Shown: one piece after another, positions 4,817 to 28,641 of the stretch
Layout: the number at the start of each line of letters is the position of its first letter
Position numbering within the stretch: the stretch's first letter is position 1
DNA from: an uncultured Balneolaceae bacterium
GTDB lineage: Bacteria > Bacteroidota > Rhodothermia > Balneolales > Balneolaceae
Assembly (NCBI GenBank): GCA_964423345.1
Contig: CAYREV010000007.1
Location: forward strand, 23,912-87,911
Direction of reading: 5' to 3'
Length of the DNA: 64,000 nt
Notes under the pieces: model-generated
What the model was told of the DNA's origin: nothing
Seen by the model: only the letters and a program-made list of their open reading frames with translations
Databases searched by the model: none
Made by a program: the position numbers and the translations under genes

Positions 4817-4836
4817 ATCATTAAAATGGTTTAGAT

Positions 4837-5361: not shown

Positions 5362-5390
5362 AATGTTATATCCGTTTTTTAGTTATTTGA

Positions 5391-5540: not shown

Positions 5541-5554
5541 AACGATTATTGTTT

Positions 5555-6988: not shown

Positions 6989-7006
6989 TCACCATCCTTT
7001 GTTTTC

Positions 7007-7760: not shown

Positions 7761-7789
7761 ACCAACTCTTTTAGCGGACTACATCTCAC

Positions 7790-8287: not shown

Positions 8288-8304
8288 ACGACTTTCCAAA
8301 CTAC

Positions 8305-9567: not shown

Positions 9568-9603
9568 GTCTTGAGAGATTTTAAATTGAAATGCCTATAC
9601 ATA

Positions 9604-9641
9604 AAACCGGGGGAGCCGTACTTAAACAACTCCCCCGGTTT
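9604..9641 (-). terminator. Intrinsic terminator downstream of the azurin-like gene
   Basis: A 10-12 bp GC-rich stem, AAACCGGGGGAG / CTCCCCCGGTTT, followed on the minus strand by TTTTAT. Confidence 0.6.
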
Positions 9642-9671
9642 CTTAAGATGGAAAGCCCTTAGTTCCGATAA

Positions 9672-10151: not shown

Positions 10152-10200
10152 GGTTGTATTCCTCTTGGATTATTTAATTATAAATTCAGTATTCGATTAA

Positions 10201-11331: not shown

Positions 11332-11355
11332 CTTATCGGAGTGTTTTATTCGAAT

Positions 11356-11375
11356 TATAGATTTAATTGTCTATA
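11356..11375. promoter_or_regulatory. Operator-like palindrome TATAGA-N8-TCTATA between the putative nirK promoter and the nirK start
   Basis: It has the same architecture (6-bp arms, 8-bp spacer, ATAGA/TCTAT core) as the two sites at 7007-7059. It lies 25-45 bp upstream of the nirK ATG. Confidence 0.35.
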
Positions 11376-11399
11376 GATAATTTTGTCTACTAATAGTAA

Positions 11400-11415
11400 T
11401 TCAATAGTCATGCCA
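11400..11415 (-). promoter_or_regulatory. Sigma-54-like -24/-12 element (TGGCAT-N5-TTGAA) facing nirK
   Basis: The minus strand reads TGGCAT GACTA TTGAA. The GG and the spacing are correct, but the -12 element is TTGAA rather than TTGCA. It lies about 70 bp upstream of the nirK ATG and about 115 bp from the TTGCA-N4-TGCAA palindrome pair. This geometry matches the stronger yceI promoter. Confidence 0.3.
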
Positions 11416-11519
11416 AACCCCTGTATTGCATAAAATTCTTTTTAAAAAGCTGCTCATCACCTTTCAGATGGGAAATATGATCGGGCATTAAATGCTGGAA
11501 AGAGCATGTGAAACGGGAG

Positions 11520-11578
11520 TATTGCAGAATTGCAATACCGCGAAATCTGGAATCTGGCAGATTTGCAATCCTGCAAAT
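11520..11578. promoter_or_regulatory. Pair of TTGCA-N4-TGCAA palindromes (candidate enhancer/UAS for a sigma-54 activator)
   Basis: TATTGCA-GAAT-TGCAATA (11520-11537) and ATTTGCA-ATCC-TGCAAAT (11561-11578). Both have perfect 7-bp arms, and their centres are 41 bp apart. Confidence 0.5.
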
Positions 11579-11768
11579 AGGTGTTATAGCCCCCCCTCCT
11601 ATCTATAAAAGTTCAGATACCCGGATTAGCATTCGTTACCCTCCCGATTTGACATGCCATACATACATTTTCAAAAAAACAGTTAATAGAACAGGTTCCA
11701 GTTTGAAATAAAGTTAGATTATTCTACATTATTTAATAATTAAGATAAAATAGTATTAAATATTATAT

Positions 11769-13859
11769 ATGGACATGAATGGCCCAAATTCCGCTCCCGA
11801 AAAACGATGGTCCCGTCCCCTTGTGATCCTCGTATCGGCGTTTCTGCTGTTTGAAACCATTACCGGCCTGCTGATATACTTTCTTCCGTTCAGTATCAGC
11901 AACCAGATGATGATCCTTGTCCACACCGGCATTGGGATCGCATTCTGTATCCCCTACCTGGTGTACCAGGTACAACACTGGCTCAGTCAGCGCCAACGAC
12001 CGCTCAGTGAAATCAAGCTTACAGGGTACATCTCCATGTTCGCTGCCCTGGCAGCCGTCATATCGGGACTGGTCCTTACATGGCAGGCCCTGTTTGAAGT
12101 CCGTATCAGCTATACATGGGACAAGATCCACCTGTTCTCTACTTATGTGCTGCTGGCCTCACTGCTACCACATATTGTGCTCATTGTCATACGCGACTAC
12201 AAGGCACGCAACAATCCGGTGATGAAACCGGTGATCGAATCCGAAAAGAATTTCGGCATAAGCAACCTCTTTGCCGTGCTTGCACAATTTGCGCTGGTAT
12301 TACTGCTTATATATGCTTTTGAGCCGACTCCCGTCGATAATAGCCTTCCCGAAGATTACCACTATACGGACGAAAGCGGCGACCGGCCCTTTGCGCCCAG
12401 CCTGGCAACCACCGAAAACGGCGAGGGCATCGATGACCTGCTGCTGGGAAAATCGGAAACATGCAGCAGTTCGGGATGCCACGAACAGATCGGAAAAGAG
12501 TGGGAGGCCAGCGCTCACCGCTACTCGGCTATGGACCCGGCTTTCCGGGCCGTCCAGACCGCCATGGGTAATCAGGAGGGACCCATGTCTACCCGTTATT
12601 GCGGTGGTTGCCACGATCCCATCTCCCTGTTTTCCGGAACCAAGAACCTGTTCAGCGACAGCCTGACCAATAAGATGGGCATGGACGAAGGGGTCTCCTG
12701 TGTCTCCTGCCATGCCATCAAGCAGGTGGATGTATCAGGAAATGCCGATTATGTGATTGCACCGCCCGAACGCTATATCTTTGAACTGAAAGACGGTAAG
12801 ATGGCCAAACTGATCAGTGATTTTCTGATTAGGGCCTACCCCCAGAAACATATCGACACCTTCCAGCGGCCACTGCTGAAAACTCCGGAATTCTGCGGAT
12901 CCTGTCATAAACAGTTTATAGACGAAGAGATCAATAACGTCGGATGGGTACAACTGCAGAACCAATACGACAATTGGCGTAAGAGCCGGTGGAATCATCC
13001 CAAAGAACCCACAAAAACCATTCAGTGCCGGGAATGCCATATGCCCCTCACAGATTCCTTTGATCCTGCCAGCGGGGACGATTTGGATTACAACCGTACC
13101 AAGGACGACGGGAAGCACCGGGACCATCGATTCCTCGGAGCCAACCAGCTGATACCCACCCTGCTGGACCTGCCGGGAGCCGAAGAGCACGTCAAACTCA
13201 CCGAAAAATGGCTAAGGGGTGAAATAGAGATTCCGGAAATCGCCGACAAATGGCGAACCGGGCCCGCAGTGCCCATCAACATTGTTGCTCCGAGAGAGAT
13301 AACCGCAGGCAATGACCTTGAGATAAGCATTGTCATAAGCAACAACAAAACAGGACACCACTTCCCCACCGGACCGCTCGATATCATTCAATCCTGGCTG
13401 GAGATTGTGGTGACAGATCAGGATGGAAACGAGATATTCACTTCCGGAACCCTGGACGAAAATAATTTTATCGAACCCGGCTCCTTTATTTTTAAAGCCG
13501 AACCGGTAGACCAGTACAATAATGTTATCGACCGGCACAACCTATGGGAAATGGTGGGCGTACGATACAGCCGGGCCCTCTATCCCGGCCATTCCGATAA
13601 CGCCGACTTCCGGATACCCCTGCCCGATTCACTGGGCCGGAAAAGCAGTGTTTCCATGAACATACCGGGCGACAAGCTCAACACCGATAAACACCAAACC
13701 ATTTTGAATATCAGTGCCCGTCTTCAGTACCGGAAAATAAATCAATACCTGATGAATGCGGTTTTCGGCAATACCTACGACAACCCCACCGCCACTGTTA
13801 CTACGATTTCAAGCGACCGGGCCGATGTAACCGTACTGAAAACAGACGCAACCTATTAG
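11769..13859 (+). CDS. Membrane-anchored multihaem cytochrome c (N-terminal ~5-TM domain + periplasmic domain with five haem-binding motifs)
   Basis: 696 aa. The N-terminal ~190 aa hold five hydrophobic helices with several His. Haem motifs are 'CSSSGCH' (CX4CH), 'CGGCH', 'CVSCH', 'CGSCH' and 'CRECH'. Confidence 0.8.
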   Translation: MDMNGPNSAPEKRWSRPLVILVSAFLLFETITGLLIYFLPFSISNQMMILVHTGIGIAFCIPYLVYQVQHWLSQRQRPLSEIKLTGYISMFAALAAVISGLVLTWQALFEVRISYTWDKIHLFSTYVLLASLLPHIVLIVIRDYKARNNPVMKPVIESEKNFGISNLFAVLAQFALVLLLIYAFEPTPVDNSLPEDYHYTDESGDRPFAPSLATTENGEGIDDLLLGKSETCSSSGCHEQIGKEWEASAHRYSAMDPAFRAVQTAMGNQEGPMSTRYCGGCHDPISLFSGTKNLFSDSLTNKMGMDEGVSCVSCHAIKQVDVSGNADYVIAPPERYIFELKDGKMAKLISDFLIRAYPQKHIDTFQRPLLKTPEFCGSCHKQFIDEEINNVGWVQLQNQYDNWRKSRWNHPKEPTKTIQCRECHMPLTDSFDPASGDDLDYNRTKDDGKHRDHRFLGANQLIPTLLDLPGAEEHVKLTEKWLRGEIEIPEIADKWRTGPAVPINIVAPREITAGNDLEISIVISNNKTGHHFPTGPLDIIQSWLEIVVTDQDGNEIFTSGTLDENNFIEPGSFIFKAEPVDQYNNVIDRHNLWEMVGVRYSRALYPGHSDNADFRIPLPDSLGRKSSVSMNIPGDKLNTDKHQTILNISARLQYRKINQYLMNAVFGNTYDNPTATVTTISSDRADVTVLKTDATY

Positions 13860-13872
13860 AAGTTTATTCAGC

Positions 13873-15669
13873 ATGTCCAGAAGAAAAAAACGAATTCTCT
13901 ACACCTCCCTCTTTTCAACTGCCATATTTCTGCTGGCCGGCTGGCACATTTGGGAAGATGATGAAAGGAAAATCTACCTGCCGGGAGAAGAAGTACAGGG
14001 CGTAACCACTCGCCTGAACCGGGAGATCCCCAAAGACTTTAATGCTTTCACCTTTAGCGATGTTACGGACAAGTCGGGTATCGACTTTACCCATTTCAAC
14101 CACAGGAGAAGTTCCCGGCTTCCCGAGGACATGGGTTCCGGGCTCGCCTGGTTCGACTATGATAACGACGGATGGGACGATCTGTTCCTGCTTAATTACT
14201 CTCTTCCCCTGGGTGATCAACATAAAGATCCCGATCAGACTCCGTCCAGAAGCAAACTGTACAGGAACAACGGGGACGGTACTTTTACGGATGTAAGCAA
14301 ACAGTCGGGCTTGGACCTGGCGGTCAGGGGAATGGGCGTAGCTGCGGCCGACTACGACAACGACGGGTGGACCGACCTCATTATAACAACCTACGGAACC
14401 AACCGCCTTATGAAAAACAACGGAGACGGAACCTTTACAGATGTAAGCAAGGAAGCGGGCATCGATTTCGGACCGGGCTTCTGGGCCGGGGCATCGTGGG
14501 GGGACTTCAACCGCGACGGAAATCCGGATCTTTATATTACGGGGTACGTCAAATTTGAAGATTTCGACTTGTCGGGCGAGAAACTTGCGGTTGAGGAACC
14601 GCCCAGCATCAATCCCTCCTCCTTTCTTCCCGAACGCAACCTGTTATATCAAAATAACGGGAACGGAACTTTTACAGAAATATCCCGCCAGACAGGTACG
14701 ATCAACGCTACCGGGCGCAGCCTCTCGGCCTCTTGGGTGGATGTGAATAACGATTTATGGCCCGACCTGTATGTGGCTAATGACGTCTCCGACAATATCT
14801 TATATCTCAACAACGGCGACGGTACATTTAGCGATATTAGCCATACCGCCCATGTGGCCGACTACCGGGGGGCCATGGGGCTGGCTACCGGCGACTGGGA
14901 CGGTGACCTTGACATGGATCTTTTTGTGACTCACTGGATCGCCCAGGAAAATGCGCTTTATACCAACCGCCTGCGCGATACCCTGCAGTCGTCTTCCGGA
15001 AGGCTTCGTTTCAAAGATGATTCGGCCAACCATGGCCTGGGACAATCCTCGCTGGATTTCGTGGGTTGGGCAACGGCTTTTACCGACTTCGACCTGGATT
15101 CGCGGCCGGATATCTTTATAGTCAACGGCAACACCATCCAGTATCCGGACAATCCCGAAAGACTAAAACCGATGACCGACCAGATATACTGGAATGCCGG
15201 AGCCAAACGAGGTTTTTACGATGTCTCAAAATTAAGCGGCTCCTATTTTGCCAAGGAGTTTGTCGGGCGCGGCGGTGCATATGCCGACTTTGATCATGAC
15301 GGAGATCCCGATTTGGCCATCATCAACCACGGTGGCAAGGCTGTATTGCTCGAAAATAATCAACATAGCGGAAACCATTGGCTGAGCATCAGGCTGGAAG
15401 GCACCGAAAGCAATCGTTCGGCCATAGGTGCTCATATTCGCATCACCACGGCAGAAAAAGTACAGGTGAAACAGGTGGGTTCCCAAAGTTCCTATCTCTC
15501 GCACAACAGCCTGGAACAACATTTCGGTTTGGGCAAGCACCGCAAAGTGGATACCCTGGAAATCAGGTGGCCCGGGGGTAAAATTGATACCTTCCCGGAT
15601 ATCAAGGCGAATCAGGTTCTGATCATAAAAGAAGGATCAACTGAATCATCCATCATGGCAGTCAATTAA
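13873..15669 (+). CDS. CRTAC1-family protein (FG-GAP/VCBS repeats + ASPIC/UnbV C-terminal domain)
   Basis: Repeated 'DYDNDGW.DL' / 'NNGDGTFTDVS' FG-GAP-type calcium-binding repeats. The C-terminal 'AIGAHIRITTAEKVQVKQVGSQSSYLSHNSLEQHFGLG' is typical of ASPIC/UnbV. Confidence 0.85.
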   Translation: MSRRKKRILYTSLFSTAIFLLAGWHIWEDDERKIYLPGEEVQGVTTRLNREIPKDFNAFTFSDVTDKSGIDFTHFNHRRSSRLPEDMGSGLAWFDYDNDGWDDLFLLNYSLPLGDQHKDPDQTPSRSKLYRNNGDGTFTDVSKQSGLDLAVRGMGVAAADYDNDGWTDLIITTYGTNRLMKNNGDGTFTDVSKEAGIDFGPGFWAGASWGDFNRDGNPDLYITGYVKFEDFDLSGEKLAVEEPPSINPSSFLPERNLLYQNNGNGTFTEISRQTGTINATGRSLSASWVDVNNDLWPDLYVANDVSDNILYLNNGDGTFSDISHTAHVADYRGAMGLATGDWDGDLDMDLFVTHWIAQENALYTNRLRDTLQSSSGRLRFKDDSANHGLGQSSLDFVGWATAFTDFDLDSRPDIFIVNGNTIQYPDNPERLKPMTDQIYWNAGAKRGFYDVSKLSGSYFAKEFVGRGGAYADFDHDGDPDLAIINHGGKAVLLENNQHSGNHWLSIRLEGTESNRSAIGAHIRITTAEKVQVKQVGSQSSYLSHNSLEQHFGLGKHRKVDTLEIRWPGGKIDTFPDIKANQVLIIKEGSTESSIMAVN

Positions 15670-15671
15670 AT

Positions 15672-16535
15672 ATGAAAAAGATTTTTATTCCCACATTTTT
15701 AATCCTGGGGTTGCTGTTCCTGGTCATCACCTACTTCAAATATGCCCCCTCCTCTACTTCAGATGCATCCGATACAGGAGAAGGAAAACAGAAATCCACT
15801 GAAGTTATTGAGTTCTGGAACCACTACGACCGGGCAACCGACTTGCGAACCGCAGGAGAGTTTCAGCAAGCGACGGCAAGATACCGGGAAGCCCTCAAGA
15901 TTGATTCCACCCACTCTAATGCCCTCTACTATATGGGCAATATGCAGATGGTACTGGGCGACTATGCCGATGCCGAAAAATACTGGAACCGTTTGATCAG
16001 GCTTAATCCTGCCAGCGCACGCGCCCATATTCAACTGGGAACCCTTTACAGTTGCAGTGAAGAATTGAATAAACAACTGTACCACCCTCCAAAAGCCTTT
16101 GCCCATTTTAAAAAAGCCATGGAGATTAACCCCGAGGATACCGGTCCCATGCTGCAGATGGCCAAGATGGACCTCGTCAACAATCGCCTGAAAGAGGCCC
16201 GACAGAAACTGGCCGATGTTGTTTCCAGTAATTTCAGAAGCACGGAAGGCATCTTTTTACAGGGATACCTGGCCTGGAAAGATAAAGGTGCCGATGAAGC
16301 TACCACATACCTGGAAAAAGCCGCGGCCATTGTGAAAGGTGACGATGAACGATATGCCAATGCGGGCGAAGGTGAAACCTCGGGGGGAGACGATCCATTG
16401 GCCATGGCTGCTCTTCGTTGTAACCTGTACAGCGACCTTATCAAAAATTTGATTACCGCCCATCTGGAAGGGCGTTTATCCGGTACGGAACAGGTATACC
16501 GCAGCTTCGACAGGGAAATCGCTTCCTCCTCCTGA
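15672..16535 (+). CDS. TPR-repeat protein with N-terminal TM/signal anchor
   Basis: 287 aa. TPR-like 34-aa repeats ('ATARYREALKIDSTHSNALYYMGNMQMVLGDYADAEKYWNRLIRLNP'). It starts 2 nt after the CRTAC1 gene stop. Confidence 0.75.
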   Translation: MKKIFIPTFLILGLLFLVITYFKYAPSSTSDASDTGEGKQKSTEVIEFWNHYDRATDLRTAGEFQQATARYREALKIDSTHSNALYYMGNMQMVLGDYADAEKYWNRLIRLNPASARAHIQLGTLYSCSEELNKQLYHPPKAFAHFKKAMEINPEDTGPMLQMAKMDLVNNRLKEARQKLADVVSSNFRSTEGIFLQGYLAWKDKGADEATTYLEKAAAIVKGDDERYANAGEGETSGGDDPLAMAALRCNLYSDLIKNLITAHLEGRLSGTEQVYRSFDREIASSS

Positions 16536-16772
16536 CTGCCTATCCACTCCCCGAATGAATTATTGCCGGCTTAAAAAAATCAAAGCACTACTTTATTTAG
16601 TATTTAAGAGTATTTTATCTTAATTTAAGATGTATTGATTAGGAGTAACCTGACCCGGACGATAACCATCGAAAAGATCATCTTACCCAATTGAAATTAA
16701 TATCTGCACATGGCAACGACCCTACCGGTTTGAGCCTCTCAATATGAACCTTGAAAAACTGAGGACAACACC

Positions 16773-17225
16773 ATGAGTAATCAGGAACACCTATATGAAA
16801 TTGACATAAGCTGGGACGAAAACCGCATGGGAACGATGCGATCTCCCGTACTCGACGATGAGATACGGGTTGCCACACCCCCCGAATTCAATGGGGGTAT
16901 CGAGGGGATTTGGTCGCCGGAACATCTCTTCGTTGCTTCCATCAGCAGTTGTTTCATGACTACTTTCCTTGCTATTGCTGAATATTCGAAAATGGATTTT
17001 GAAAACCTTCAGGTTAATGCCATCGGCAAACTTGATAAAGTGGATGGGAAATTTATGGTCAGTGAAGTCACACTGAAACCGGTACTGGAAATTCATGACG
17101 AAAAATTTGCCGATAAGGCACGACGCCTCATGGAAAAAGCGGAGGCCGCGTGCCTGATCTCCCGGTCCGTAAAGACCGTTATTCATTTTGAGCCGAAGGT
17201 TGTAATTGGCGCCCTGAATTCCTAG
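16773..17225 (+). CDS. OsmC/Ohr-family peroxiredoxin-like protein
   Basis: 150 aa. 'WSPEHLFVASISSCFMTTF' and 'AEAACLISRS' are the two conserved Cys-containing segments of the OsmC family. Confidence 0.8.
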   Translation: MSNQEHLYEIDISWDENRMGTMRSPVLDDEIRVATPPEFNGGIEGIWSPEHLFVASISSCFMTTFLAIAEYSKMDFENLQVNAIGKLDKVDGKFMVSEVTLKPVLEIHDEKFADKARRLMEKAEAACLISRSVKTVIHFEPKVVIGALNS

Positions 17226-17236
17226 AACGTCCATCC

Positions 17237-18583
17237 ATGGAATATTACCGGAAATTTATCTCTTCTGTGGAATCGCTATATTTTCGAGGTGGTTTGCCAA
17301 CCTCACAAAATATAAACAGGGCCAAGGAGCACAAGATGGCAAGCGGGATAACATCCACTAACTCTCTTAAGCACGATCCCTTGTGGTCGGTTACCTTCGC
17401 CTGCTTTATGCTGGCAGCCCTAACGGGCTCCCTCTACCGCTACGGCATGATCGGCACCCTCCCCTGGGAATTGAGCCTCGACAATATTCGCCATGCACAT
17501 TCCCATCTTATGTTCTTCTCCTGGGCCGCCCCCCTCCCTCTCTATATATTCCTGCTAAAAATGAAGGGATGGGTCAACAGCCGGGATACCGCCATTCGAT
17601 GGATGAAAATATCTCTTTGGGCCTGCCTGGCTTTTGGACTTATATCCTACCCATTTTTTCTACTATACGGCTATCATCCGGTGCCGGTCGGTTCCTCGTC
17701 CCTTCCCCTGTCGGTTATCATGTCCGGCATGGTCATGCTCTCATGGTACCTCTACATGGGTAGTTATCTTACTCTAAGAAAAAAGTTGAGCAACCGAACC
17801 AAACCGTGGATGGAAGCTTCCATGTTCATGCTTTTTATCTGTTCACTTGGGGCATGGGGCGTTGCCCTGGTACAGGCACTGTTTCCGGAAGCCCATTTAA
17901 TGATGAAAGGGCTGACGCATTTTTTTCTTGCGGCTTTTACAGAAGGGTGGGTGGTTCTGGCCCTGCTCTCGATGCTGCTTGATGCCCTACCGCTGGATAA
18001 GCGCGCGCTTCCCCTATCCCAGCATACCCTTATCGGCATGATCGCCATAGGTGCACCCCTGACATTTCCCTATGGTATTTCTGAAACCCTTTTGTCTCCC
18101 CTCCTGCTGGTTGTTGCCCGTTTTGGGGGACTGGTTATTGCCACCGCTTTGCTCACCCTTCTTTACGGTATGTTTAAGTCGGCAACATGGGAAAAATCCC
18201 TTTGGAAATGGGTTCTCGGATTGCTTCTGCTCAAGGCCCTAATGCAGCTCAGTGCCTCCCTCCTGCCCTCCGGCTTCTGGCTTTCGGAACCTACGTTCCG
18301 GGTGTTGTACCTCCATCTGCTCCTGCTCGGGGCATTCACATTGGGCATGGTAGGATGGCTTCATCATAATTCAGAAGCACCCGACAGGCCCTATACCTTA
18401 TTTGCCTGGACTGTAGCTATTTTATTGGTCAGCCTGGTCACACTGAGCCCACTATGGCCCGGTTCCTGGAGAGGCATGTGGATTTTCTATTTTGTTTGGG
18501 GCGCTACCCTGCTGCCGGTATTAGCCCTTGCCTATGAATGGATAACCTTAAAAGTAACATACGGGGATACTTCGCATGAGTGA
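17237..18583 (+). CDS. Polytopic membrane protein with conserved His motifs (NnrS-like or HCO-helix-like; function unknown)
   Basis: 448 aa with about 12 hydrophobic helices. Motifs: 'RHAHSHLMFFSWAAP', 'LTHFFLAAFTEGW', 'LYLHLLLLGAFTLGMVGW'. The true start is probably the internal Met at 17336 ('MASGITS'). It lies 12 nt after the OsmC gene. Confidence 0.6.
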   Translation: MEYYRKFISSVESLYFRGGLPTSQNINRAKEHKMASGITSTNSLKHDPLWSVTFACFMLAALTGSLYRYGMIGTLPWELSLDNIRHAHSHLMFFSWAAPLPLYIFLLKMKGWVNSRDTAIRWMKISLWACLAFGLISYPFFLLYGYHPVPVGSSSLPLSVIMSGMVMLSWYLYMGSYLTLRKKLSNRTKPWMEASMFMLFICSLGAWGVALVQALFPEAHLMMKGLTHFFLAAFTEGWVVLALLSMLLDALPLDKRALPLSQHTLIGMIAIGAPLTFPYGISETLLSPLLLVVARFGGLVIATALLTLLYGMFKSATWEKSLWKWVLGLLLLKALMQLSASLLPSGFWLSEPTFRVLYLHLLLLGAFTLGMVGWLHHNSEAPDRPYTLFAWTVAILLVSLVTLSPLWPGSWRGMWIFYFVWGATLLPVLALAYEWITLKVTYGDTSHE

Positions 18584-18683
18584 TATCAGAAATGAAGAGG
18601 ATATCAGTAAACTGGTTCACACCTTCTATCAAAAGGTGCAAAAAGATAGCTGCAACGGGAAGGCAAACTTGAAGAATAAATAA
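18576..18683 (+). pseudogene. Possible remnant of a truncated-haemoglobin (trHb group II/III) gene, N-terminal 25-35 codons only
   Basis: My own translation: 'MSDIRNEEDISKLVHTFYQKVQKDSCNGKANLKNK*'. The 'I..LV..FY.KV.KD' segment matches the conserved N-terminal helix of trHbs (for example 'IAKLMEIFYEKVRKD'). The reading frame then stops, and no continuation exists in the other frames. Confidence 0.3.
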
Positions 18684-18718
18684 TATGAAGAGAATTAAAA
18701 CCCACTAGATGAATTGAC

Positions 18719-19162
18719 ATGCCAAAAATTGCACGGATATTTATTAAAACCGGACTGCTCTTCTTTCTAGCTTCCCTGCTGGCGGGCATTGCACTCGAAG
18801 TAGACTCGTGGAGTTTTCCCGCCCTGATGCCGCTCTTCTGGCATATGCTTATGGTGGGCTGGATAACCCAAATCATTTTTGGGGTTTCTATCTGGATGTT
18901 TCCGGGCCGAACACGCGACAAGGGATTTCGGGTGTATTACTGGAGCTGGCTCACCTATATACTGTTAAATACCGGATTGGCACTGCGAATTATCGCCGAA
19001 CCCTTGATCGCCCTATCCGGCCACGAATTTTGGGATATCCTCGCCGTCTTATCGGCTGCATTTCAATGTGCTTCGGGAATTACCTATATCATCGATATGT
19101 GGCCGCGCATTCAATCCAAAGAACAACTGATTAAAAACAGAAAGAAACGATCGGCCGGTTAA
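18719..19162 (+). CDS. Four-TM membrane protein, His-x6-GW motif family (paralogue of 19192-19608)
   Basis: 147 aa. 'WHMLMVGWITQIIFGVSIWMFP' parallels 'IHIEIMLFGWIIQLTLGTAYWILP' of the next ORF and resembles the helix-X region of cbb3/NOR-type HCOs. Confidence 0.55.
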   Translation: MPKIARIFIKTGLLFFLASLLAGIALEVDSWSFPALMPLFWHMLMVGWITQIIFGVSIWMFPGRTRDKGFRVYYWSWLTYILLNTGLALRIIAEPLIALSGHEFWDILAVLSAAFQCASGITYIIDMWPRIQSKEQLIKNRKKRSAG

Positions 19163-19191
19163 TTCATTCATAACCTCTAAAATATTCACTC

Positions 19192-19608
19192 ATGCCTGCT
19201 CCAAGCCGGTGGATGATCCGCTGCTCTTTTGCCTATTTGATTTTTGGTTTCCTTCTCGGTGGAATCCTGCTGACCCACAAAGCCTATCCTCTGCATCCTT
19301 CAGTCTGGTTCCTGCTTCCCATTCATATTGAGATTATGCTCTTTGGCTGGATCATCCAGCTGACATTGGGAACAGCCTACTGGATTTTGCCCCGTTTCCT
19401 GGAAAGTCCCCAGCGGGGAAAACCGGTATTGGCAGTCATAATGGTCATCTTTTTGAACCTGGGCATCTCCTTTGTTGTTGTCGATGCCTTGGTGTCTACG
19501 GACATTCCCCTAAAGCTTTACGGAAGGCTATTGGAACTCGCAGCCGTTGCCCTATTTATCTCACTGCACTGGAAACGGGTGGTAGCCTATCAAAGAAGCC
19601 TCAGTTAA
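19192..19608 (+). CDS. Four-TM membrane protein, His-x6-GW motif family (paralogue of 18719-19162)
   Basis: 138 aa with the same topology and motif as the preceding ORF. Confidence 0.55.
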   Translation: MPAPSRWMIRCSFAYLIFGFLLGGILLTHKAYPLHPSVWFLLPIHIEIMLFGWIIQLTLGTAYWILPRFLESPQRGKPVLAVIMVIFLNLGISFVVVDALVSTDIPLKLYGRLLELAAVALFISLHWKRVVAYQRSLS

Positions 19609-19637
19609 AATTAAGCAAACCCATTAAATAATTTTTC

Positions 19638-20924
19638 ATGTCATTTGATTCAAAATATACAACAGCAGAAGAAGCAGTTAAGCTTATCAATTCCGGCGAT
19701 CGGATCTTTATCCACAGCGTGGCGGCCGCTCCACAGCCGTTGATCAACGCAATGACCGATCGGGCCCCGGAACTTGATGATATTGAAATTGTACACTTGC
19801 ACACCGAGGGAGAAGCACCCTACGCCGAGCCCGAATACAGCGACACCTTTCATACCAACGCACTTTTTGTGGGGGCCAATGTACGAAAGGCCGTTAACGA
19901 AGGCAGTGCCGATTACCTACCGATATTTCTTAGTGAAGTCCCCGGCCTCTTTCGCCGCAATATCCTGCCGGTTGACATGGCCCTGGTGCAGGTTTCTCCC
20001 CCCGACAAACACGGCTATTGCTCTCTGGGTGTTTCGGTAGATGCCAGCCGGGCAGCCCTGCAGTGTGCCGAGAAAGCCATCGCCCTGGTCAACCCCAACA
20101 TGCCACGAACACACGGAGACGGCATATTCCACGCCAGCCGTTTTAATGCCTTGGTCGAAAGCGAGGAACCGCTGCATGAGCTTGCCCTACCCGAGCCGAA
20201 CGAGGTGGAGCAAAAAATCGGCCGAAACTGCGCCGGACTGGTTGAAAACGGGGCTACCCTGCAGATGGGTATAGGGGCCATTCCCAATGCCGTTCTGCAG
20301 GCTCTTCATGGCCATAAAGACCTGGGCATCCATACCGAAATGTTTAGCGACGGGGTTATAGACCTGGTAGAGCGAGGGGTCGTTAACGGCAAGAATAAAA
20401 CCACTCACCCTGAAAAAATCGTGGCAGGTTTTGTAATGGGCAGCAGGAAACTGTACGACTTTGTAGATGACAACCCCATGCTTGCCATGCTGGATATAGC
20501 CTATGTGAACGATACGGCCGTCATCCGTAAAAACCCAAAGGTAACCGCCATCAACAGTGCCATTGAAGTCGATATTACCGGACAGGTATGCGCCGATTCC
20601 ATCGGAACCTACCACTACTCCGGGGTAGGCGGACAGATGGACTTTATCCGCGGGGCTTCACTCAGCGAAGGCGGCAAACCTATTATCGCCCTGCCTTCTA
20701 CCACCGCCAAGGGGGAAAGTAAAATCGTGCCCTACCTTAAACAGGGAGGGGGCGTGGTTACTACCCGGGCCCACGTTCATTATGTGGTTACAGAATACGG
20801 GGTGGCTAATCTGTATGGGAAAAATCTAAGCCAGCGTGCCAGGGCACTGGTTGAAATAGCCCACCCCGACCACCGTGAAGAACTGGAACGGGCAGCAGCA
20901 GAACGGTTTAACCATACGCACTAG
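19638..20924 (+). CDS. Acetyl-CoA hydrolase/transferase family protein (4-hydroxybutyrate CoA-transferase-like)
   Basis: 428 aa. 'TAEEAVKLINSGDRIFIHSVAAAPQPLINAM', 'LQMGIGAIPNAV', 'HTEMFSDG' and 'SAIEVDITGQV' are typical family motifs. Confidence 0.85.
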   Translation: MSFDSKYTTAEEAVKLINSGDRIFIHSVAAAPQPLINAMTDRAPELDDIEIVHLHTEGEAPYAEPEYSDTFHTNALFVGANVRKAVNEGSADYLPIFLSEVPGLFRRNILPVDMALVQVSPPDKHGYCSLGVSVDASRAALQCAEKAIALVNPNMPRTHGDGIFHASRFNALVESEEPLHELALPEPNEVEQKIGRNCAGLVENGATLQMGIGAIPNAVLQALHGHKDLGIHTEMFSDGVIDLVERGVVNGKNKTTHPEKIVAGFVMGSRKLYDFVDDNPMLAMLDIAYVNDTAVIRKNPKVTAINSAIEVDITGQVCADSIGTYHYSGVGGQMDFIRGASLSEGGKPIIALPSTTAKGESKIVPYLKQGGGVVTTRAHVHYVVTEYGVANLYGKNLSQRARALVEIAHPDHREELERAAAERFNHTH

Positions 20925-21058: not shown

Positions 21059-21106
21059 ATTGCAGATTTGCAATCTCCCGTTTTTATCTATTGCACGAGT
21101 GCAATA
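21059..21106. promoter_or_regulatory. Pair of TTGCA-N4-TGCAA palindromes (candidate sigma-54 activator UAS) upstream of the porin gene
   Basis: ATTGCA-GATT-TGCAAT (21059-21074) and TATTGCA-CGAG-TGCAATA (21089-21106). Centres are 31 bp apart. Confidence 0.5.
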
Positions 21107-21220: not shown

Positions 21221-21236
21221 TGGAACGCATCTTGTA
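21221..21236 (+). promoter_or_regulatory. Sigma-54-like -24/-12 element TGGAAC-N5-TTGTA
   Basis: It has the same TGGAAC -24 box as the yceI promoter and the correct spacing, but the -12 box is TTGTA instead of TTGCA. It lies 60 bp upstream of the ATG at 21296 and about 125 bp downstream of the palindrome pair. Confidence 0.4.
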
Positions 21237-22585: not shown

Positions 22586-22613
22586 CGCATAGCCCACCTC
22601 CCCCAACCCCTAA

Positions 22614-22648
22614 GCGGTGCTGCTATAAAAGGCAGCATCGCTTTTTTT
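22614..22648 (+). terminator. Intrinsic terminator after the porin-like gene
   Basis: GCGGTGCTGC-TATAAAAG-GCAGCATCGC stem-loop (one G-U pair) followed by TTTTTTT. Confidence 0.7.
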
Positions 22649-23167: not shown

Positions 23168-23341
23168 GACCGGCAGGGATGGTTAACATTTTCTGTTATT
23201 CGTTCTCAATAGATAATGCAATAGTGATACCAAACAGGCAGTCAGGCCTCTCTTTTCTTTTCAAACGGGATTTAACTAAACGGCAGGGACAATAATTGTT
23301 TAAAAGGCTGGTCCTGCCTCCCTTTGCCAATCATACATCTG

Positions 23342-23387
23342 TTGCATTCCTGCAAGGGAAATCAAATGACGGTATGCAAGTATGCAA
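23342..23387. promoter_or_regulatory. Pair of TTGCA-N4-TGCAA-type palindromes (candidate UAS) upstream of the yceI operon
   Basis: TTGCA-TTCC-TGCAA (23342-23355, perfect) and ATGCA-AGTA-TGCAA (23374-23387, one mismatch). Centres are 32 bp apart and lie about 118-150 bp upstream of the -24 box. Confidence 0.5.
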
Positions 23388-23495
23388 ACCACCTGAACGA
23401 GTTGGGCTTGTGCGATGTTTCGAAAATAGCCAGCCATGTTCCGGAGTGCTTATAGACCTATTTTCCCCTGGAAATTTTAGGTGAGCCGACGGTTT

Positions 23496-23511
23496 TGGAA
23501 CGATGATTGCA
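23496..23511 (+). promoter_or_regulatory. Sigma-54 promoter TGGAAC-GATGA-TTGCA
   Basis: It matches TGGCAC-N5-TTGCA at 10 of 11 specified positions with correct GG/GC spacing. It lies 47 bp upstream of the ATG at 23558. A sigma-54-dependent response regulator is encoded about 2.5 kb downstream. Confidence 0.65.
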
Positions 23512-23557
23512 TCTATAATAAGTAAACAAGGCAATCACCAACCCTAATCCCTCAATT

Positions 23558-24163
23558 ATGAAAAAAGCAACGATACTTAACTGGCTCATTTTCGCCTTCA
23601 TGCTCATCCCCTTTGCAGTATTTTCACAGGCGGCCGACTATACCATGTCACCCTCAAGCACCATGATCATCACGGGGACCTCCACCATCCATGACTGGGA
23701 AGCCGATGTAGAGGAGCTGCAACTTACCGTGGATATTAATCCGGACATGATGCTATGCGACAGTACAGCCGAAGCATTGTCGGCACTAACAGTAACCGTT
23801 CCGGTAACATCCATAGAAAGCGGCAAAGGTGGAATGAACAATAAGATATACGGTGCATTGGAATCGAAGAAGCATCCCAATATCACCTTTAAACTCGCAG
23901 ACGCCCGACTTACCGATATGAAGGAAAACGCCTTTACCCTGCAGCTGAAAGGAAACCTGACCATTGCCGGATTTACCCGAGAAGTAACTTTTCCCGTAAC
24001 CGGCATGAAGGAGAACGAGAAGGGCTATCGATTCAAAGGCAGCTACGGATTAAACATGAAAGACTACAAGGTTGATCCTCCCTCGGCTATGTTCGGAGCA
24101 ATCAAAAGCGGAGAAGAGGTGGAAATTGCGTTCGATATTCTATTAACCAGAAATAACCTGTAA
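23558..24163 (+). CDS. YceI-like domain protein (secreted)
   Basis: 201 aa. Signal peptide; 'ITGTSTIHDWEADV' and 'LKGNLTIAGFTREVTFPV' resemble the YceI lipid/polyisoprenoid-binding barrel. Confidence 0.65.
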   Translation: MKKATILNWLIFAFMLIPFAVFSQAADYTMSPSSTMIITGTSTIHDWEADVEELQLTVDINPDMMLCDSTAEALSALTVTVPVTSIESGKGGMNNKIYGALESKKHPNITFKLADARLTDMKENAFTLQLKGNLTIAGFTREVTFPVTGMKENEKGYRFKGSYGLNMKDYKVDPPSAMFGAIKSGEEVEIAFDILLTRNNL

Positions 24164-24186: not shown

Positions 24187-24885
24187 ATGAATACATTCAC
24201 CGAATATATTCGCTCCCCTATTCCGATAAATAAGATACTGCTGTCTGCAATACTTCTTATTTTCCTCCCCTTTCATGCCGGGGCTCAAAACAATCCACAG
24301 GGGCAAATAAAAATTGAAGAGGGAGGCAAACTATGGATCAGCGGTTCGGCCACCATCGTCGACTACACCTGCAAGGCCAGAGAACTGTCCGGCAACGGAA
24401 CCATAAAATACAAGGGGCAGCCCCGGAAAAACGTACGAGAGAGCGGCGATGTAAACATAACCGTGAGCATCCCTGTTCATTCGCTGGATTGTGGCAAAAA
24501 GCCCATGAACCGGGATATGTATGAAGCCCTAAAAGCAAACAGCCACCCCAATATCCACTATGAGCTTCTGGATGCCTTACTGGTTGACAGTACTTCTGCA
24601 AACGGCAATGAAGGCCCATCCTGGATGAACATCAAAACCACCGGCATCCTTGAAATTGCCGGCGTCAGGGATACAACGGAAATCCTCATCAGGGGAAAAA
24701 TCACAGATAACAACCGGTTCAGGGTCAAGGGAAGTAAACATATATCCATGGATACTTTTAATATCGATCCCCCTACGGCCCTGCTGGGATTGATAAAGGC
24801 AAACAAGGAACTTACCGTCAAGTTTGATGTAGCTGTCAGAATTAAAGGCACCCGGCAAAACCCGGGTATAACCGGGCGGAAATGA
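24187..24885 (+). CDS. YceI-like domain protein (second copy, secreted)
   Basis: 232 aa. 'ISGSATIVDYTCKA' and 'TTGILEIAGVRDTTEILIRG', with the same architecture as the preceding ORF. Confidence 0.6.
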   Translation: MNTFTEYIRSPIPINKILLSAILLIFLPFHAGAQNNPQGQIKIEEGGKLWISGSATIVDYTCKARELSGNGTIKYKGQPRKNVRESGDVNITVSIPVHSLDCGKKPMNRDMYEALKANSHPNIHYELLDALLVDSTSANGNEGPSWMNIKTTGILEIAGVRDTTEILIRGKITDNNRFRVKGSKHISMDTFNIDPPTALLGLIKANKELTVKFDVAVRIKGTRQNPGITGRK

Positions 24886-24927: not shown

Positions 24928-25908
24928 ATGTATACTTTCAAAAAGATTTTGGTTCCAACCGACTTGTCCGACAACGCTTCTGCAGCCTATCCACTGGCCC
25001 AGGAGATAGCCGCCCGATATGATGCCACCGTTGATTTTATTCATATCATCCCCATGCTGCACTATTTTCATGAAAGCATGGATACGCTGAATATCCCGCT
25101 GAATATGGAAAAAGATGTCTATCCCAAAATTCAGAAGCGAACTGCTGATAAAATAAACGAACTGATGAGCAGTTTTTTACAGCCTCAGAACAAGGGAAAG
25201 GGAGTGGTAACCATAGCAAGAAAACCGGCGATTGAAATTGCAGATTTTGCCGAAGGTAACGGTTATGACCTAATAGTAATGGCCACCAACGGCCAGCATG
25301 AATCGGACCTTTTGAGGGGAAGCATCACCGAAAAAGTTATAAGGTATGCCCATACCCCCGTCCTGACCACACAGATTGCAGACCCTGAACGTTTCAAGAC
25401 CCTGCTGCTACCCACCGATGGGTCTATGACCTCGCTTGAAGCCCTGCCCATAGCCGTTTCCATGGCCCTAATCTTTAACGCTTCCATCACTTTATACCAT
25501 GTGCTTGAACTGCATGGATCAATGACGGAAAGCGCCCCCAGAGATCCGCATAAAACTGTCGAGGAAAACATACATAATACCCTGTACAGAGCGCTGGAGG
25601 AATTCCTCGAGAGCCAACCAAACAGCAATACCGAACTGCGGCGGGGCGATAACAATGAAAATCAGCTGGTGTATACCGAGGGAGCCTCCAGTGCAACCAT
25701 CAATGTGAAAACCGTCATTGAGAAAGGTGTATCGGCCCATCATGCCATTACCAGCTATGCCGGCAGCCATGCGGATATGGTTATTATGGCTACGCACGGG
25801 CGCAGCGGACTGGCTCACCTGCTGCTGGGTTCCACGGCCGAGAAGGTTGCACAGCACCTGGATTTGCCGGTGCTAACGGTCAAACCCGACCTGCATACCG
25901 TCACATAG
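24928..25908 (+). CDS. Universal stress protein, tandem UspA domains
   Basis: 326 aa. 'KKILVPTDLSDNA', 'DLIVMATNGQH...GSITEKVIRYAHTPVL', then a second 'LLLPTDGS' ... 'DMVIMATHGRSGLAHLLLGSTAEKVAQHLDLPVLTV'. Confidence 0.85.
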   Translation: MYTFKKILVPTDLSDNASAAYPLAQEIAARYDATVDFIHIIPMLHYFHESMDTLNIPLNMEKDVYPKIQKRTADKINELMSSFLQPQNKGKGVVTIARKPAIEIADFAEGNGYDLIVMATNGQHESDLLRGSITEKVIRYAHTPVLTTQIADPERFKTLLLPTDGSMTSLEALPIAVSMALIFNASITLYHVLELHGSMTESAPRDPHKTVEENIHNTLYRALEEFLESQPNSNTELRRGDNNENQLVYTEGASSATINVKTVIEKGVSAHHAITSYAGSHADMVIMATHGRSGLAHLLLGSTAEKVAQHLDLPVLTVKPDLHTVT

Positions 25909-25975: not shown

Positions 25976-27322
25976 CTAAATACCCATACGCTCCATCTTG
26001 CGGTAAAGAGTTGAGGGGTCAATTCCCAGCAGCCGTGCGGCCTCGGTCTTATTGCCATCGGTACGTTTAAGCACGCTCATGATATGGTGTTTTTCAAAGG
26101 TTTGGACCGCCTCCTCCAGGGAATCATGATCGTAGTCTACCTTCCCTTTGGATTCACTGATGCTTTTGGGCAGGTCGTCAAGAGTTATAAATTCGTCACT
26201 ACCCAGCAGTACGGCCCTTTCAATAATATTTTCCAGCTCCCGCACCTGTCCTTTCCACTCAAACGACATCAGGGCTCCCATAGCCTCGCTGGTTATACCC
26301 TGAACAGGCCGGTTCAGCTCCCTGCTGTACTTTTTAAGGAAATGTTGAGCCAGCAGGGGGATATCCTCCCGCCGTTCCTGAAGGGTGGGCAAGGGTATCT
26401 CCACAACATTCAGGCGGTAATAGAGATCTTCCCTGAAATTGCCTTTTTCAACTTCCTCTTCAAGGTTTTTGTTGGTGGCCGCTACAATCCTCGTATCGAA
26501 ACTTACCATCCGGTTTGAACCAATGGGCTTAACCTCTCGCTCCTGAATGACCCGAAGCAGGTTAACCTGTTGACTCAGCGGTATTTCTCCCACCTCATCC
26601 AGAAAAACCGTTCCCTTGTGGGCAGCCACAAAAACCCCATCCTTGTCATTGATAGCCCCCGTAAACGCACCCTTTTTATGCCCGAAAAGCTCCGACTCAA
26701 TCAGGTCCCTGGGAATCGCACCGCAGTTTATCGCAATAAACGGCTTGGAGGACCTGTTGCTATGGGAGTGTATGGCCCTGGCTACCAGTTCCTTGCCCGT
26801 ACCGCTGGGGCCGGTAATCAGCACATTGCTGTTGGCGTCGCTTACCCTTTTAACCATCCGGTAGACCTCCTTCATCGCCGGGCTTTCACCTATAATGTGA
26901 TTGAAGTTGAACTCCTGGTCGATCTGCTCACGGAGGTATTTGTTTTCCTGCACCAGCTTTTTCTGTTTCAACAGATTCTCAATTCGTACAATCACTTCAT
27001 CAAAGTCGAGGGGTTTGAGGATATAGTCGGCTGCCCCCTTCCTCAAGGCCTGTATGGCTGTTTCCACCGTTGCATGGGCGGTAATGATAATAGTCAGGGT
27101 ATCCGACGATCGCCTGAGGGCATGTTCAAGGACCTCTATTCCCTCGACTTTGGGCATCTTAAGGTCCGTTATCAGGATATCGTAGGAGTGCTCGTTCAAG
27201 GCTTCAATGGCCTCTTCCCCGTCAGCAACGGCCTTGCACTGGAATCCCTCTTCCCGCAAAACTATGGACAGTGAATTCCGAATTTCCTCTTCATCGTCGG
27301 CAATAAGTATGGTTCCTATCAT
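25976..27322 (-). CDS. Sigma-54-dependent response regulator (NtrC/AtoC family: REC + AAA+ + Fis-type HTH)
   Basis: 'ILIADDEEEIRNSL...ILITDLKMP' (REC), 'GPSGTGKELVARAIH' (Walker A), 'ESELFGHKKGAFTGA' (GAFTGA loop), 'AARLLGIDPSTLYRKMERMGI' (HTH). Its start overlaps the kinase stop by 4 nt. Confidence 0.92.
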   Translation of the reverse strand: MIGTILIADDEEEIRNSLSIVLREEGFQCKAVADGEEAIEALNEHSYDILITDLKMPKVEGIEVLEHALRRSSDTLTIIITAHATVETAIQALRKGAADYILKPLDFDEVIVRIENLLKQKKLVQENKYLREQIDQEFNFNHIIGESPAMKEVYRMVKRVSDANSNVLITGPSGTGKELVARAIHSHSNRSSKPFIAINCGAIPRDLIESELFGHKKGAFTGAINDKDGVFVAAHKGTVFLDEVGEIPLSQQVNLLRVIQEREVKPIGSNRMVSFDTRIVAATNKNLEEEVEKGNFREDLYYRLNVVEIPLPTLQERREDIPLLAQHFLKKYSRELNRPVQGITSEAMGALMSFEWKGQVRELENIIERAVLLGSDEFITLDDLPKSISESKGKVDYDHDSLEEAVQTFEKHHIMSVLKRTDGNKTEAARLLGIDPSTLYRKMERMGI

Positions 27323-28641
27323 AGGGTTGTTGCTTTATGTTCAAGGGGCAGGCTTATTACAAAAGTGGTCCCTTCTCCGTAGTCGGAATCAACCTCTATG
27401 GCACCCCCCATCTTGGAAATGATACCGTGGCTCACCGACAGTCCGAGACCGGTGCCGCTGCCCACGTCCTTGGTCGTATAAAAAGGCTCAAATATTCGTT
27501 TAATATCTTTCTCGGGAATTCCCTGTCCCACATCCCGGATAGAAATTTTTACTTCTCCCTGCTCCTCCCATGTTTTAATGGTAACCCGGGGATTTTTAAC
27601 CGATTGCATCGCATCCACGGCATTCATCAGCAAGTTGACGATCACCTGGTGTATGTGATCCGGAACCCCCTCTATTTCGGGCAGGCCGGACGACAGGTTA
27701 AGATCAAAATCCACTGAACGGCAACGGGCGTCGTGCCTCAGCAGGCCCACAGCCGATCGAATAACCTCATTCAACTGTGTCATCTTCGTCTCCAGGCTGG
27801 ACGGCCGGGCAAAATCGACCAGATCCCTTACAATCTTGTTTATGCGTTGTATATGTTCCCGTACCTTGGCAAGCTGATCCTGCACAAAAGGCTCGTCACT
27901 TTTTCGCTGGCATACCTGTACCAGCGAGGAGATGGCGGTTAGCGGATTTCCCACCTCATGGGCTACCCCGGCAGCCATATGCCCCAGCGTGGCCAGGCGT
28001 TCGGAATGCTGTATCTGCTCCTCTTTAATTTTCAGGTCAGTCAGATCCCTTAAAATTTGGGAACGGCCCACAATCTCTCCTTTCTCGTCCCGGATATAGG
28101 ATTCCGTTAGATTGACCAGCACTTTGCTGCCCTCCTTGTTCAGCCTTTCCGTTTCATAATTCGTTACATAACCCCGGTAATGCATACCGAAGTCTATGCA
28201 TTCCAGCTCTTTCTGCTCAATCATTTCGTCGGGCAGCAGCACCTTGATCGACTTGCCGATAATTTCATCCCTGTTCCATCCGAAAATCTGCTCCGCCCCC
28301 TGGTTCCAGGAGGTTATGACCTTGTTATTATCCAGCGTTATGATTGCATCCGCAGAGTGTTCGATAATATTGCGGTACCGCTGTTCCGTCACATCCAGCT
28401 GCTCCTGGTACAACTCCCGGTAGTTGTAAACGGTCCACGCCGCCCAAACAACAAGTAACAGGGAAACGATAACCCCTCTGCTAAAATAGAGGATCTGCAG
28501 GGCCTGCGGAGATGTATCGTCCATAAATACGATCTTGATGATTTCGAACACCCCGAAAAAGAGCCCCAGGATCAACAGCGACATGAAAAGCAGATATCCG
28601 ATACGGACATGCTTTAAAAAGTGAAGAATGCCTTTCCTCAT
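27319..28641 (-). CDS. Sensor histidine kinase (2 TM + PAS + HisKA + HATPase_c)
   Basis: 'AAGVAHEVGNPLTAI' H-box; 'DAIITLDNNKVITSWNQGAEQIFGW' PAS; 'GTGLGLSVSHGII' G2 box. Confidence 0.9.
   Translation of the reverse strand: MRKGILHFLKHVRIGYLLFMSLLILGLFFGVFEIIKIVFMDDTSPQALQILYFSRGVIVSLLLVVWAAWTVYNYRELYQEQLDVTEQRYRNIIEHSADAIITLDNNKVITSWNQGAEQIFGWNRDEIIGKSIKVLLPDEMIEQKELECIDFGMHYRGYVTNYETERLNKEGSKVLVNLTESYIRDEKGEIVGRSQILRDLTDLKIKEEQIQHSERLATLGHMAAGVAHEVGNPLTAISSLVQVCQRKSDEPFVQDQLAKVREHIQRINKIVRDLVDFARPSSLETKMTQLNEVIRSAVGLLRHDARCRSVDFDLNLSSGLPEIEGVPDHIHQVIVNLLMNAVDAMQSVKNPRVTIKTWEEQGEVKISIRDVGQGIPEKDIKRIFEPFYTTKDVGSGTGLGLSVSHGIISKMGGAIEVDSDYGEGTTFVISLPLEHKATTL

Follow-up and report, generated by a model that had tools for sequence, protein, structure and literature searches.

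A putative bidirectional sigma-54 control region with a paired-dyad enhancer between a receiver gene and a yceI operon in the Balneolaceae

In a 64-kb stretch of DNA from an uncultured bacterium of the family Balneolaceae (contig CAYREV010000007.1, positions 23,912 to 87,911; hereafter the window), the spacer between a stand-alone receiver gene and a yceI-yceI-usp operon contains two short inverted repeats (dyads), flanked on either side by an outward-facing sequence of the sigma-54 (-24/-12) promoter type. This spacer is probably a bidirectional sigma-54 control region, in which the pair of dyads would act as the enhancer, the NtrC-type response regulator encoded next to the operon would be the likeliest activator, and a small regulon would be controlled through the same motif. 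Regulators of this type are referred to below as enhancer-binding proteins (EBPs).

The spacer is 390 bp long, with the pair of dyads in the middle and the sigma-54 promoters facing outward on both sides (Table 1). An earlier note on this DNA had placed the promoter of the yceI-yceI-usp operon at exactly the coordinates found here, with a single mismatch and 47 bp between its last base and the ATG at 23558. The GG and GC doublets of this promoter are 10 bp apart, with the GC at 23509-23510(+), and the doublet spacing typical of sigma-54 promoters is also found in the second, divergent promoter on the minus strand, which precedes the receiver gene with 50 bp between promoter and ATG. The transcription of yceI is predicted to start near 23520-23523. 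The centers of the two dyads are 32 bp apart, or approximately 3.05 helical turns, on the same face of the DNA, which agrees with the three turns given in the note, and its distance of 118-150 bp upstream was roughly right, given that the first base of the yceI promoter is 122 bp from the start of dyad 2 and 154 bp from the start of dyad 1. The center-to-center distances are 124 bp between dyad 1 and the minus-strand promoter and 123 bp between dyad 2 and the yceI promoter. The one-sided layout of enhancer and promoter described in the earlier note holds, but the minus-strand promoter had been missed, and the dyad pair looks like a bidirectional enhancer, that is, an upstream activating sequence common to both promoters.

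No candidate promoter of the sigma-70 type was found in the yceI direction of the spacer in a promoter scan. The hexamer TATAAT at 23514-23519 was considered as a sigma-70 -10 element and rejected, given that it has no -35 partner and is not kept as such in the relatives. An RNA element in the yceI leader was also rejected, as there is no Rfam match at E values up to 1, and the leader is unstructured, with a folding z-score of 0.29.

A short motif may also arise by chance, with no regulatory role. In the window, TGGCAC-N5-TTGCW with up to one mismatch is found once, against 1.81 expected, and at least one match is present in 81 of 100 shuffled sequences. A one-mismatch sigma-54 match by itself is thus not significant, being what a random sequence of 64 kb yields, and the qualification of this promoter as a textbook one was overstated from the window alone, although the promoter itself is supported by its conservation and by its rank with a promoter matrix. 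This matrix, which was trained solely on other genomes and then run over the whole window, placed 23496(+) first, with 22.9 bits, followed by 21221(+) with 18.5 bits, 23217(-) with 16.9 bits, and the next site with 13.2 bits. The dyad motif, by contrast, is significantly enriched, with seven occurrences of TGCA-N4-TGCA against 0.76 expected (0 of 100 shuffles), and eight of TTGCA-N4-TGCAA with up to one mismatch against 2.22 expected, a count reached in none of the 100 shuffles. Seven of these eight sites fall into three intergenic clusters (11522-11576, 21060-21104, and 23342-23387). The lone dyad-like matches at 40648 and 59136 have neither a partner dyad nor a promoter, and are regarded as chance occurrences. 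The enrichment speaks against chance as the explanation of the whole arrangement, and this explanation is effectively refuted by the fact that the four elements keep their order, orientation, and spacing in approximately 30 genomes in which the spacers have otherwise diverged.

The comparison is based on 39 related loci, obtained in a scan of species-representative genomes and compared with the proteins of the window by tblastn. In approximately 30 of these 39 loci, the gene order is the same, with the porin-like gene (+), the receiver (-), the two yceI genes (+), the EBP (-), and the kinase (-), and a receiver-like open reading frame (ORF) occupies the divergent position in most of the loci. 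Cultured relatives with this layout include Fodinibius salsisoli (L005, in which Usp is also present), Fodinibius sediminis (L015), and Aliifodinibius salipaludis (L024). The positions of the elements were tabulated for 31 receiver-yceI spacer regions, and the spacers of the relatives contain the same four elements, in the same order and orientation. Most genomes (24) have the dyads 32 bp apart, and the distance is 33 bp in six and 31 bp in one. The plus-strand TGGAAC-N5-TTGCA is conserved in 29 of the 31 regions, at 112-144 bp from dyad 2, and the minus-strand promoter, TGG[TC]NN-N5-ATTGCA, is present in 27, at 101-134 bp from dyad 1. This second promoter is more distant from dyad 1 in loci L010 and L019. 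Three loci that do not fit the strict pattern (L027, L031, and L032) have a version with GT at -12 in the expected place. Paired dyads at approximately 80-150 bp from the promoter are the arrangement expected of an enhancer, and the distances across the 31 genomes are 101-144 bp. The A variant of dyad 2 is common to the nearest relatives (L003, L005, and L013).

When the five closest spacers are aligned, identity is 58% per column. Both promoters and both dyads stand out as islands of invariant columns, and the invariant positions between these four islands are single and scattered. No conserved IHF site between the enhancer and the promoter is visible in this alignment, and only A-tracts are found, in some relatives. 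In a count matrix of 148 dyad sites, information is found only in TTGCA and TGCAA, with none in the N4 spacer or in the flanks, as expected for a dyad contacted by a protein. The palindromes are thus conserved in the orthologous promoters of approximately 30 Balneolaceae genomes, as the earlier note required of them, while the N4 and the surrounding sequence vary. At the level of sequence comparison, these data settle the promoters and dyads as real elements, beyond what the statistics of the window can provide.

The distances between promoter and dyad cluster at approximately 101, 109, 121, and 133 bp on one side and 122, 132, and 141 bp on the other, in steps of approximately 10-12 bp, with Rayleigh p values of 1e-3 to 1e-5, in a test that treats related genomes as independent; when unique distances are used, the plus side is non-significant and the minus side has p of approximately 0.003. 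It is suggestive only, then, that insertions and deletions between enhancer and promoter may be tolerated in whole helical turns.

The neighboring regulator had been proposed as the activator on the grounds that it is the only EBP of the window, and no other was found, either by tblastn or in a six-frame scan for GAFTGA. Its domains (Response_reg, Sigma54_activat with 244 bits, AAA_lid_14, and HTH_8 in Pfam) and its Walker A, GAFTGA, Walker B, and R-finger motifs, at residues 171, 218, 239, and 297, are those of an EBP of the NtrC type. The proposal gains from the comparison, in which EBP orthologues with 64-86% identity are found in the same position in approximately 30 loci, and from the behavior of the motifs at four YceI loci that have no adjacent kinase and EBP (L002, L028, L035, and L037), where neither dyads nor promoters are present. 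With strict matching, the motifs are found in 0 of these 4 loci and in 28 of the 30 others (Fisher p = 3e-4). In their genomes, the L002 and L028 loci are second copies, present in addition to the regulated one. The helix-turn-helix (HTH) recognition helix of the EBP, IDPSTLYRK, is invariant in 30 orthologues, as is the half-site of the dyad.

The promoters and dyads may be functional while the dyads are bound by another EBP, whose gene would lie in some other part of the genome, with the neighboring pair regulating something else. The window is only 64 kb of a genome, bacteria of this group often have several EBPs, and dyads are missing from the kinase/EBP operon itself, all of which would fit this alternative. 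It is nevertheless unlikely, given that the kinase/EBP pair adjoins the dyad-bearing operon in so many genomes, that the dyads are missing from the loci that lack the pair, and that helix and half-site are both invariant.

A further alternative is that the dyads are the operators of a dimeric protein other than an EBP, such as a regulator of the Crp/Fnr type, which would modulate or repress transcription, while the EBP would act from solution or from other sites. The 5-4-5 layout of the dyads is like that of FNR-type boxes (TTGAT-N4-ATCAA), and nirK and the universal stress protein (Usp) gene, both candidate targets here, are typical genes of anaerobic regulons in other bacteria; FNR-like regulators of denitrification genes are reportedly the subject of a review by Rodionov et al. 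2005 (PMC1274295). This alternative is nonetheless very unlikely, though less so than chance, as the dyads are paired, with a spacing of 31-33 bp, and lie 100-145 bp from sigma-54 promoters, whereas FNR-type activation would place them at -41.5 relative to a sigma-70 promoter. The scanned ORFs of the window include no Crp/Fnr gene, the dyads co-occur with the EBP, and the spacer has no other conserved candidate site for an EBP.

The reading of the spacer as a sigma-54 control region activated by the neighboring EBP has, in addition to the chance-level frequency of the promoter match and the relatedness of the genomes in the Rayleigh test, a number of points that weigh against it. This EBP is connected with the dyads through synteny and co-occurrence only, which leaves room for an EBP encoded elsewhere, and the invariance of the HTH helix is consistent with this connection, but not diagnostic of it, because helices of this type are common in the NtrC family. 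Autoregulation by way of the dyad motif is not indicated, as no dyads precede the kinase/EBP operon, which differs in this from zraSR and other autoregulated systems. An ORF with the RpoN box was not found in the window or in 44 related loci, which are a small part of any genome, and sigma-54 is taken to be present on account of the promoters and of the EBP, in which GAFTGA is intact in all the relatives. The DNA sequencing runs that contain the window are soil metagenomes, and no RNA run was found that contains it. Two metatranscriptomes carry fragments of the operon of locus L033, as internal pieces only, with a depth of approximately 1-5 and no 5' end.

Table 1. Coordinates of the control elements, the genes of the locus, and the other features of the window (dyads have no strand; the respiratory island is a putative one).
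Feature	Position	Strand	Details
Sigma-54 (-24/-12) promoter, yceI-yceI-usp operon	23496-23511	+	TGGAAC-GATGA-TTGCA, 1 mismatch to TGGCAC-N5-TTGCW
Dyad 1	23342-23355	none	TTGCA-TTCC-TGCAA, perfect 5-4-5 inverted repeat
Dyad 2, yceI-proximal	23374-23387	none	aTGCA-AGTA-TGCAA, one left-arm mismatch
Second, divergent sigma-54 promoter, receiver gene	23217-23232	-	TGGTAT-CACTA-TTGCA, pattern TGG-N8-TTGCW; GC 23219-23220(-)
Stand-alone receiver-domain protein, 121 aa	22802-23167	-	Response_reg 29.5 bits, just below the cut-off of 30.2
YceI-like lipid/polyisoprenoid-binding protein 1	23558-24163	+	Signal peptide; PF04264, 67 bits
YceI-like protein 2	24187-24885	+	23 bp after the first yceI
Tandem universal stress protein, third gene of the operon	24928-25908	+	Usp 160.6 bits over two stretches; 42 bp after the second yceI
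NtrC-type response regulator/EBP, candidate activator	25976-27322	-	REC, AAA+ with GAFTGA, Fis-type HTH
Cognate PAS histidine kinase	27319-28641	-	Two predicted N-terminal membrane helices, cytoplasmic PAS, HisKA, HATPase; 4-bp overlap with the start of the EBP
Dyad pair upstream of the porin-like gene	21060-21104	none	TTGCA-GATT-TGCAA and TTGCA-CGAG-TGCAA, 31 bp apart
Sigma-54 promoter, porin-like gene, -12 GT variant	21221-21236	+	TGGAAC-GCATC-TTGTA, 131 bp after the dyads
Porin-like protein, 429 aa	21296-22585	+	Signal peptide, C-terminal Phe
Putative nirK-azurin-porin operon	8305-11331	-	nirK 10201-11331, azurin-like cupredoxin 9672-10151, porin 8305-9567
Sigma-54-like promoter, nirK	11400-11415	-	TGGCAT-GACTA-TTGAA, -12 C replaced by A
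Dyad cluster, nirK	11522-11576	none	Three overlapping or adjacent sites (11522, 11555, 11563), 121 bp upstream of the promoter
SCO1/SenC	1924-2937		Respiratory island
COX1-family oxidase	3089-4816		Respiratory island
COX2-like protein	4837-5361		Respiratory island
Divergent second COX1-like protein	5555-6988		55 bits only
Multihaem cytochrome c	11769-13859		Respiratory island
Two short ORFs	18719-19162 and 19192-19608		Weak COX1 similarity
Other island genes			Rrf2, CopD-like protein, nirK-azurin-porin; FG-GAP/ASPIC, TPR, OsmC

The same palindrome had been noted at two other promoters of the window, and it is found there, and at the orthologues, upstream of the porin-like gene and of the nirK-azurin-porin operon. 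Given that dyads and sigma-54 promoters also precede these genes, the system appears to control a small regulon. The porin-like gene is monocistronic, with a terminator at 22612-22643, and its product, which has no family match in Pfam or NCBIfam, is probably an outer-membrane barrel, based on the signal peptide and the C-terminal Phe. Counting the window together with the related loci, 31 copies of this gene were examined, and 27 of them have the dyads and TGG-N8-TTG upstream. The four copies without the motifs are those of L002 and L028, in paralogue clusters that also lack the EBP, that of L037, and one with too little upstream sequence. The -12 region of the promoter reads TTGT in 23 of these 27 copies and TTGCA in four, whereas the yceI and receiver promoters of the same genomes retain TTGCA, and this conserved departure from the consensus may set a different basal level or a different dependence on the activator.

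In three of the loci (L002 4575-7292, L028 4595-7274, and L037 634-3214), a second porin-like gene and two yceI genes are adjacent on one strand, with no receiver, dyads, or EBP. From this gene order, the porin-like protein and the two YceI proteins seem to be a functional module, with a regulated and an unregulated version.

The product of nirK scores 388 bits with the copper nitrite reductase model TIGR02376, against a cut-off of 296. In its two closest orthologues among those retrieved, L041 and, from Fodinibius saliphilus, L040, TGGTAT or TGGCAT, followed by N5-TTGCA, is found at the same distance from the ATG, together with an invariant promoter-proximal dyad, ATTGCA-N4-TGCAAT, and the same nirK-azurin-porin gene order is found in the relatives. 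The dyads and the sigma-54 promoter are both absent from three more distant nirK orthologues. As the promoter of the window has TTGAA where these orthologues have TTGCA, it may be weakened in this organism. On the other side of the dyads, no plus-strand sigma-54 promoter was found for the multihaem cytochrome gene at 11769, either by eye or with the matrix, and the nirK enhancer therefore appears to be one-directional.

Overlapping dyads with an offset of 8 bp, in the form TGCA-N4-TGCA-N4-TGCA, are found in L009 (929-982), L033 (2074-2119), L001 (3556-3601), and the window (11555-11576). This overlap explains the odd gap of 41 bp between the two perfect dyads of nirK, where the dyad at 11555, with one mismatch, restores the usual spacing of 33 bp.

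The stretch from the nirK promoter to its ATG at 11331 also contains, at 11358-11389(-), a tandem of two 16-bp dyads, TAGACAAAATTATCTA and TAGACAATTAAATCTA. They begin at approximately the predicted start of nirK transcription, recur as conserved sequences in the leaders of the L040 and L041 nirK genes, and look like the operator of a repressor. A gene for a regulator of the Rrf2 family lies nearby, at 7320-7760(+), and in an equivalent relative position in L040 and L041, which makes an NsrR-like input of nitrite or NO at nirK plausible.

The mechanism that would follow from the sigma-54 reading begins with the membrane-anchored PAS kinase, which would phosphorylate the NtrC-type regulator. 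Dimers of the phosphorylated regulator would bind both dyads through the Fis-type HTH and assemble into an active AAA+ ring, which would reach the sigma-54 holoenzyme, in the closed complex at either promoter, by looping of the DNA. The hydrolysis of ATP, acting through the GAFTGA loop, would then lead to the formation of the open complex. The system would control a small set of genes, mostly periplasmic or of the outer membrane, to which nitrite reduction would have been added in this clade. The induced stand-alone receiver might, as a speculation, serve as a phosphate sink.

Such a mode of action would be like that of the paradigm of NtrC at glnAp2, where two dyads, approximately three turns apart, lie 100-140 bp upstream of the -24/-12 element, and where dimers of REC-AAA+-Fis-HTH architecture oligomerize upon phosphorylation and act by looping. 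The dyads of the window are paired at a matching spacing and distance from the promoter, and their half-site contains TGCA, as does the NtrC (NR-I) site, TGCACC-N5-GGTGCA. They differ in being TGCA-N4-TGCA, with 14 bp overall against 17 bp in NtrC, and in forming an enhancer common to two outward-facing promoters, unlike that of glnAp2. The EBP of the window is also no orthologue of NtrC, with 449 bits against the NCBIfam ntrC cut-off of 559, and none of its candidate targets is a nitrogen-assimilation gene.

The closest layout is that of Escherichia coli, in which the spacer of the divergently transcribed zraP and zraSR units contains just one target bound by ZraR (PMC8249747). Both ZraSR (HydHG) and the system of the window combine a regulator of the NtrC family and a kinase with one binding region between divergent units and with periplasmic or envelope targets, and the alignment of the EBP with ZraR spans the entire protein (structure 1ojl, E = 2e-95; NCBIfam ZraR, 416 bits). 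The two pairs are not equivalogs, however, given the scores of 416 bits for ZraR, against a cut-off of 760, and of 200 bits for ZraS, against 479. Whereas ZraS has a periplasmic metal sensor, the PAS of the kinase of the window appears to be cytoplasmic, with hardly any loop in the periplasm, and its operon, unlike zraSR, is not one of the divergent units, being convergent and downstream, without dyads in front of it.

Among the families, the best matches are AtoC (476 bits) and AtoS (308 bits) of E. coli, with the same order of domains, and AtoS likewise has a PAS; the scores are far below the equivalog cut-offs of 714 and 646, however, there are no ato genes nearby, and the targets are unrelated. 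The EBP also matches the structures of full-length NtrC1 of Aquifex aeolicus (4l4u, E = 1e-114) and of NtrC4 (3dzd, 1e-95), which, with that of ZraR, are its closest solved structures. The control of norVW by NorR, which reportedly uses multiple enhancer sites (PMC2831303), offers a parallel in the use of sigma-54 and an EBP for a gene related to nitrogen oxides, and there is a parallel with NsrR in the Rrf2 gene and the operator-like dyads by the nirK of the window. NorR has a GAF domain instead of a receiver and recognizes GT-N7-AC, whereas the EBP of the window has a receiver domain and reaches only 341 bits, against the NorR cut-off of 476. In the literature, no description was found of nirK under the control of sigma-54 and a two-component EBP, nor was there a match for the dyad sequence, a paper on sigma-54 in the Balneolaceae, or anything relevant on sigma-54 with YceI and Usp.

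The kinase appears, from its translation and Pfam domains, to have two membrane helices with a very short connecting loop, followed by the cytoplasmic PAS, so it would sense a membrane-associated or cytoplasmic signal. The cytoplasmic PAS, the presence of nirK and Usp among the targets, and the weak similarity of the PAS to DosP and FixL (E of approximately 1e-6) suggest, or point loosely to, oxygen limitation, the redox state, or nitrogen oxides as this signal. A haem-PAS kinase was considered and rejected, as the match to DosP and FixL is weak, and the position of the proximal histidine of FixL is not kept, as judged by eye.

A wider interpretation, which is offered tentatively and is rather doubtful as a whole, is that a PAS kinase and regulator responding to oxygen, redox state, or nitrogen oxides are general in the Balneolaceae, and drive a sigma-54 envelope regulon (the porin-like protein, the YceI pair, Usp, and the feedback receiver) that would include nirK in this clade. 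Denitrification would then depend on sigma-54 and a two-component system, and not on FNR or NnrR, with an Rrf2 (NsrR-like) operator over the sigma-54 start as a second input.

The gene calls of the YceI-YceI-Usp operon, the EBP, and the kinase were confirmed, but, as the third gene is found only in L003 and L005 among the related loci, Usp is, on the gene order compared here, a member of the operon in this clade only. The nearest relatives of the first YceI protein are only 55-61% identical and are from the Balneolaceae, including Fodinibius, Aliifodinibius, and Halalkalibaculum. The kinase/EBP operon is convergent with the yceI-yceI-usp operon. In the receiver protein, AEPEE replaces the usual acidic DD pocket, while the candidate phospho-acceptor Asp55 and Lys102 are retained, and this divergent sequence may represent an atypical receiver or a pseudo-receiver.

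The left third of the window, at 1924-20924, resembles a respiratory and nitrogen-oxide island (Table 1), in which the divergent COX1-like genes may encode haem-copper NO reductases of an unusual kind. Two observations are unrelated to the control region: proteins with the GWxTD domain are encoded at 47106-48554(+) and 59851-61332(-), and a SusD-like gene at 48904-50277 adjoins an ORF of 1014 aa at 50289-53333.

The switch described here is well supported, but of an ordinary kind, and it leaves the knowledge of how sigma-54 systems work unchanged. Its interest lies in the organisms, given that the Balneolaceae, halophilic soil and sediment bacteria of the phylum Balneolota, are essentially unstudied with regard to regulation, and a testable regulon is now available, which in the window consists of a single kinase/EBP pair and four promoters, with a dyad of 14 bp as its defined motif. 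The geometry is very clean, with its spacing of 32 bp, its equidistant outward promoters, and an apparent tendency of its indels to come in helical turns, and provides a natural data set on the drift of enhancers in distance and phase. A regulated stress or respiratory response is thereby linked to the YceI proteins, the role of which is not yet well understood, and to a probable outer-membrane protein without a family, and the arrangement at nirK suggests an unusual sigma-54 route to the expression of this gene.

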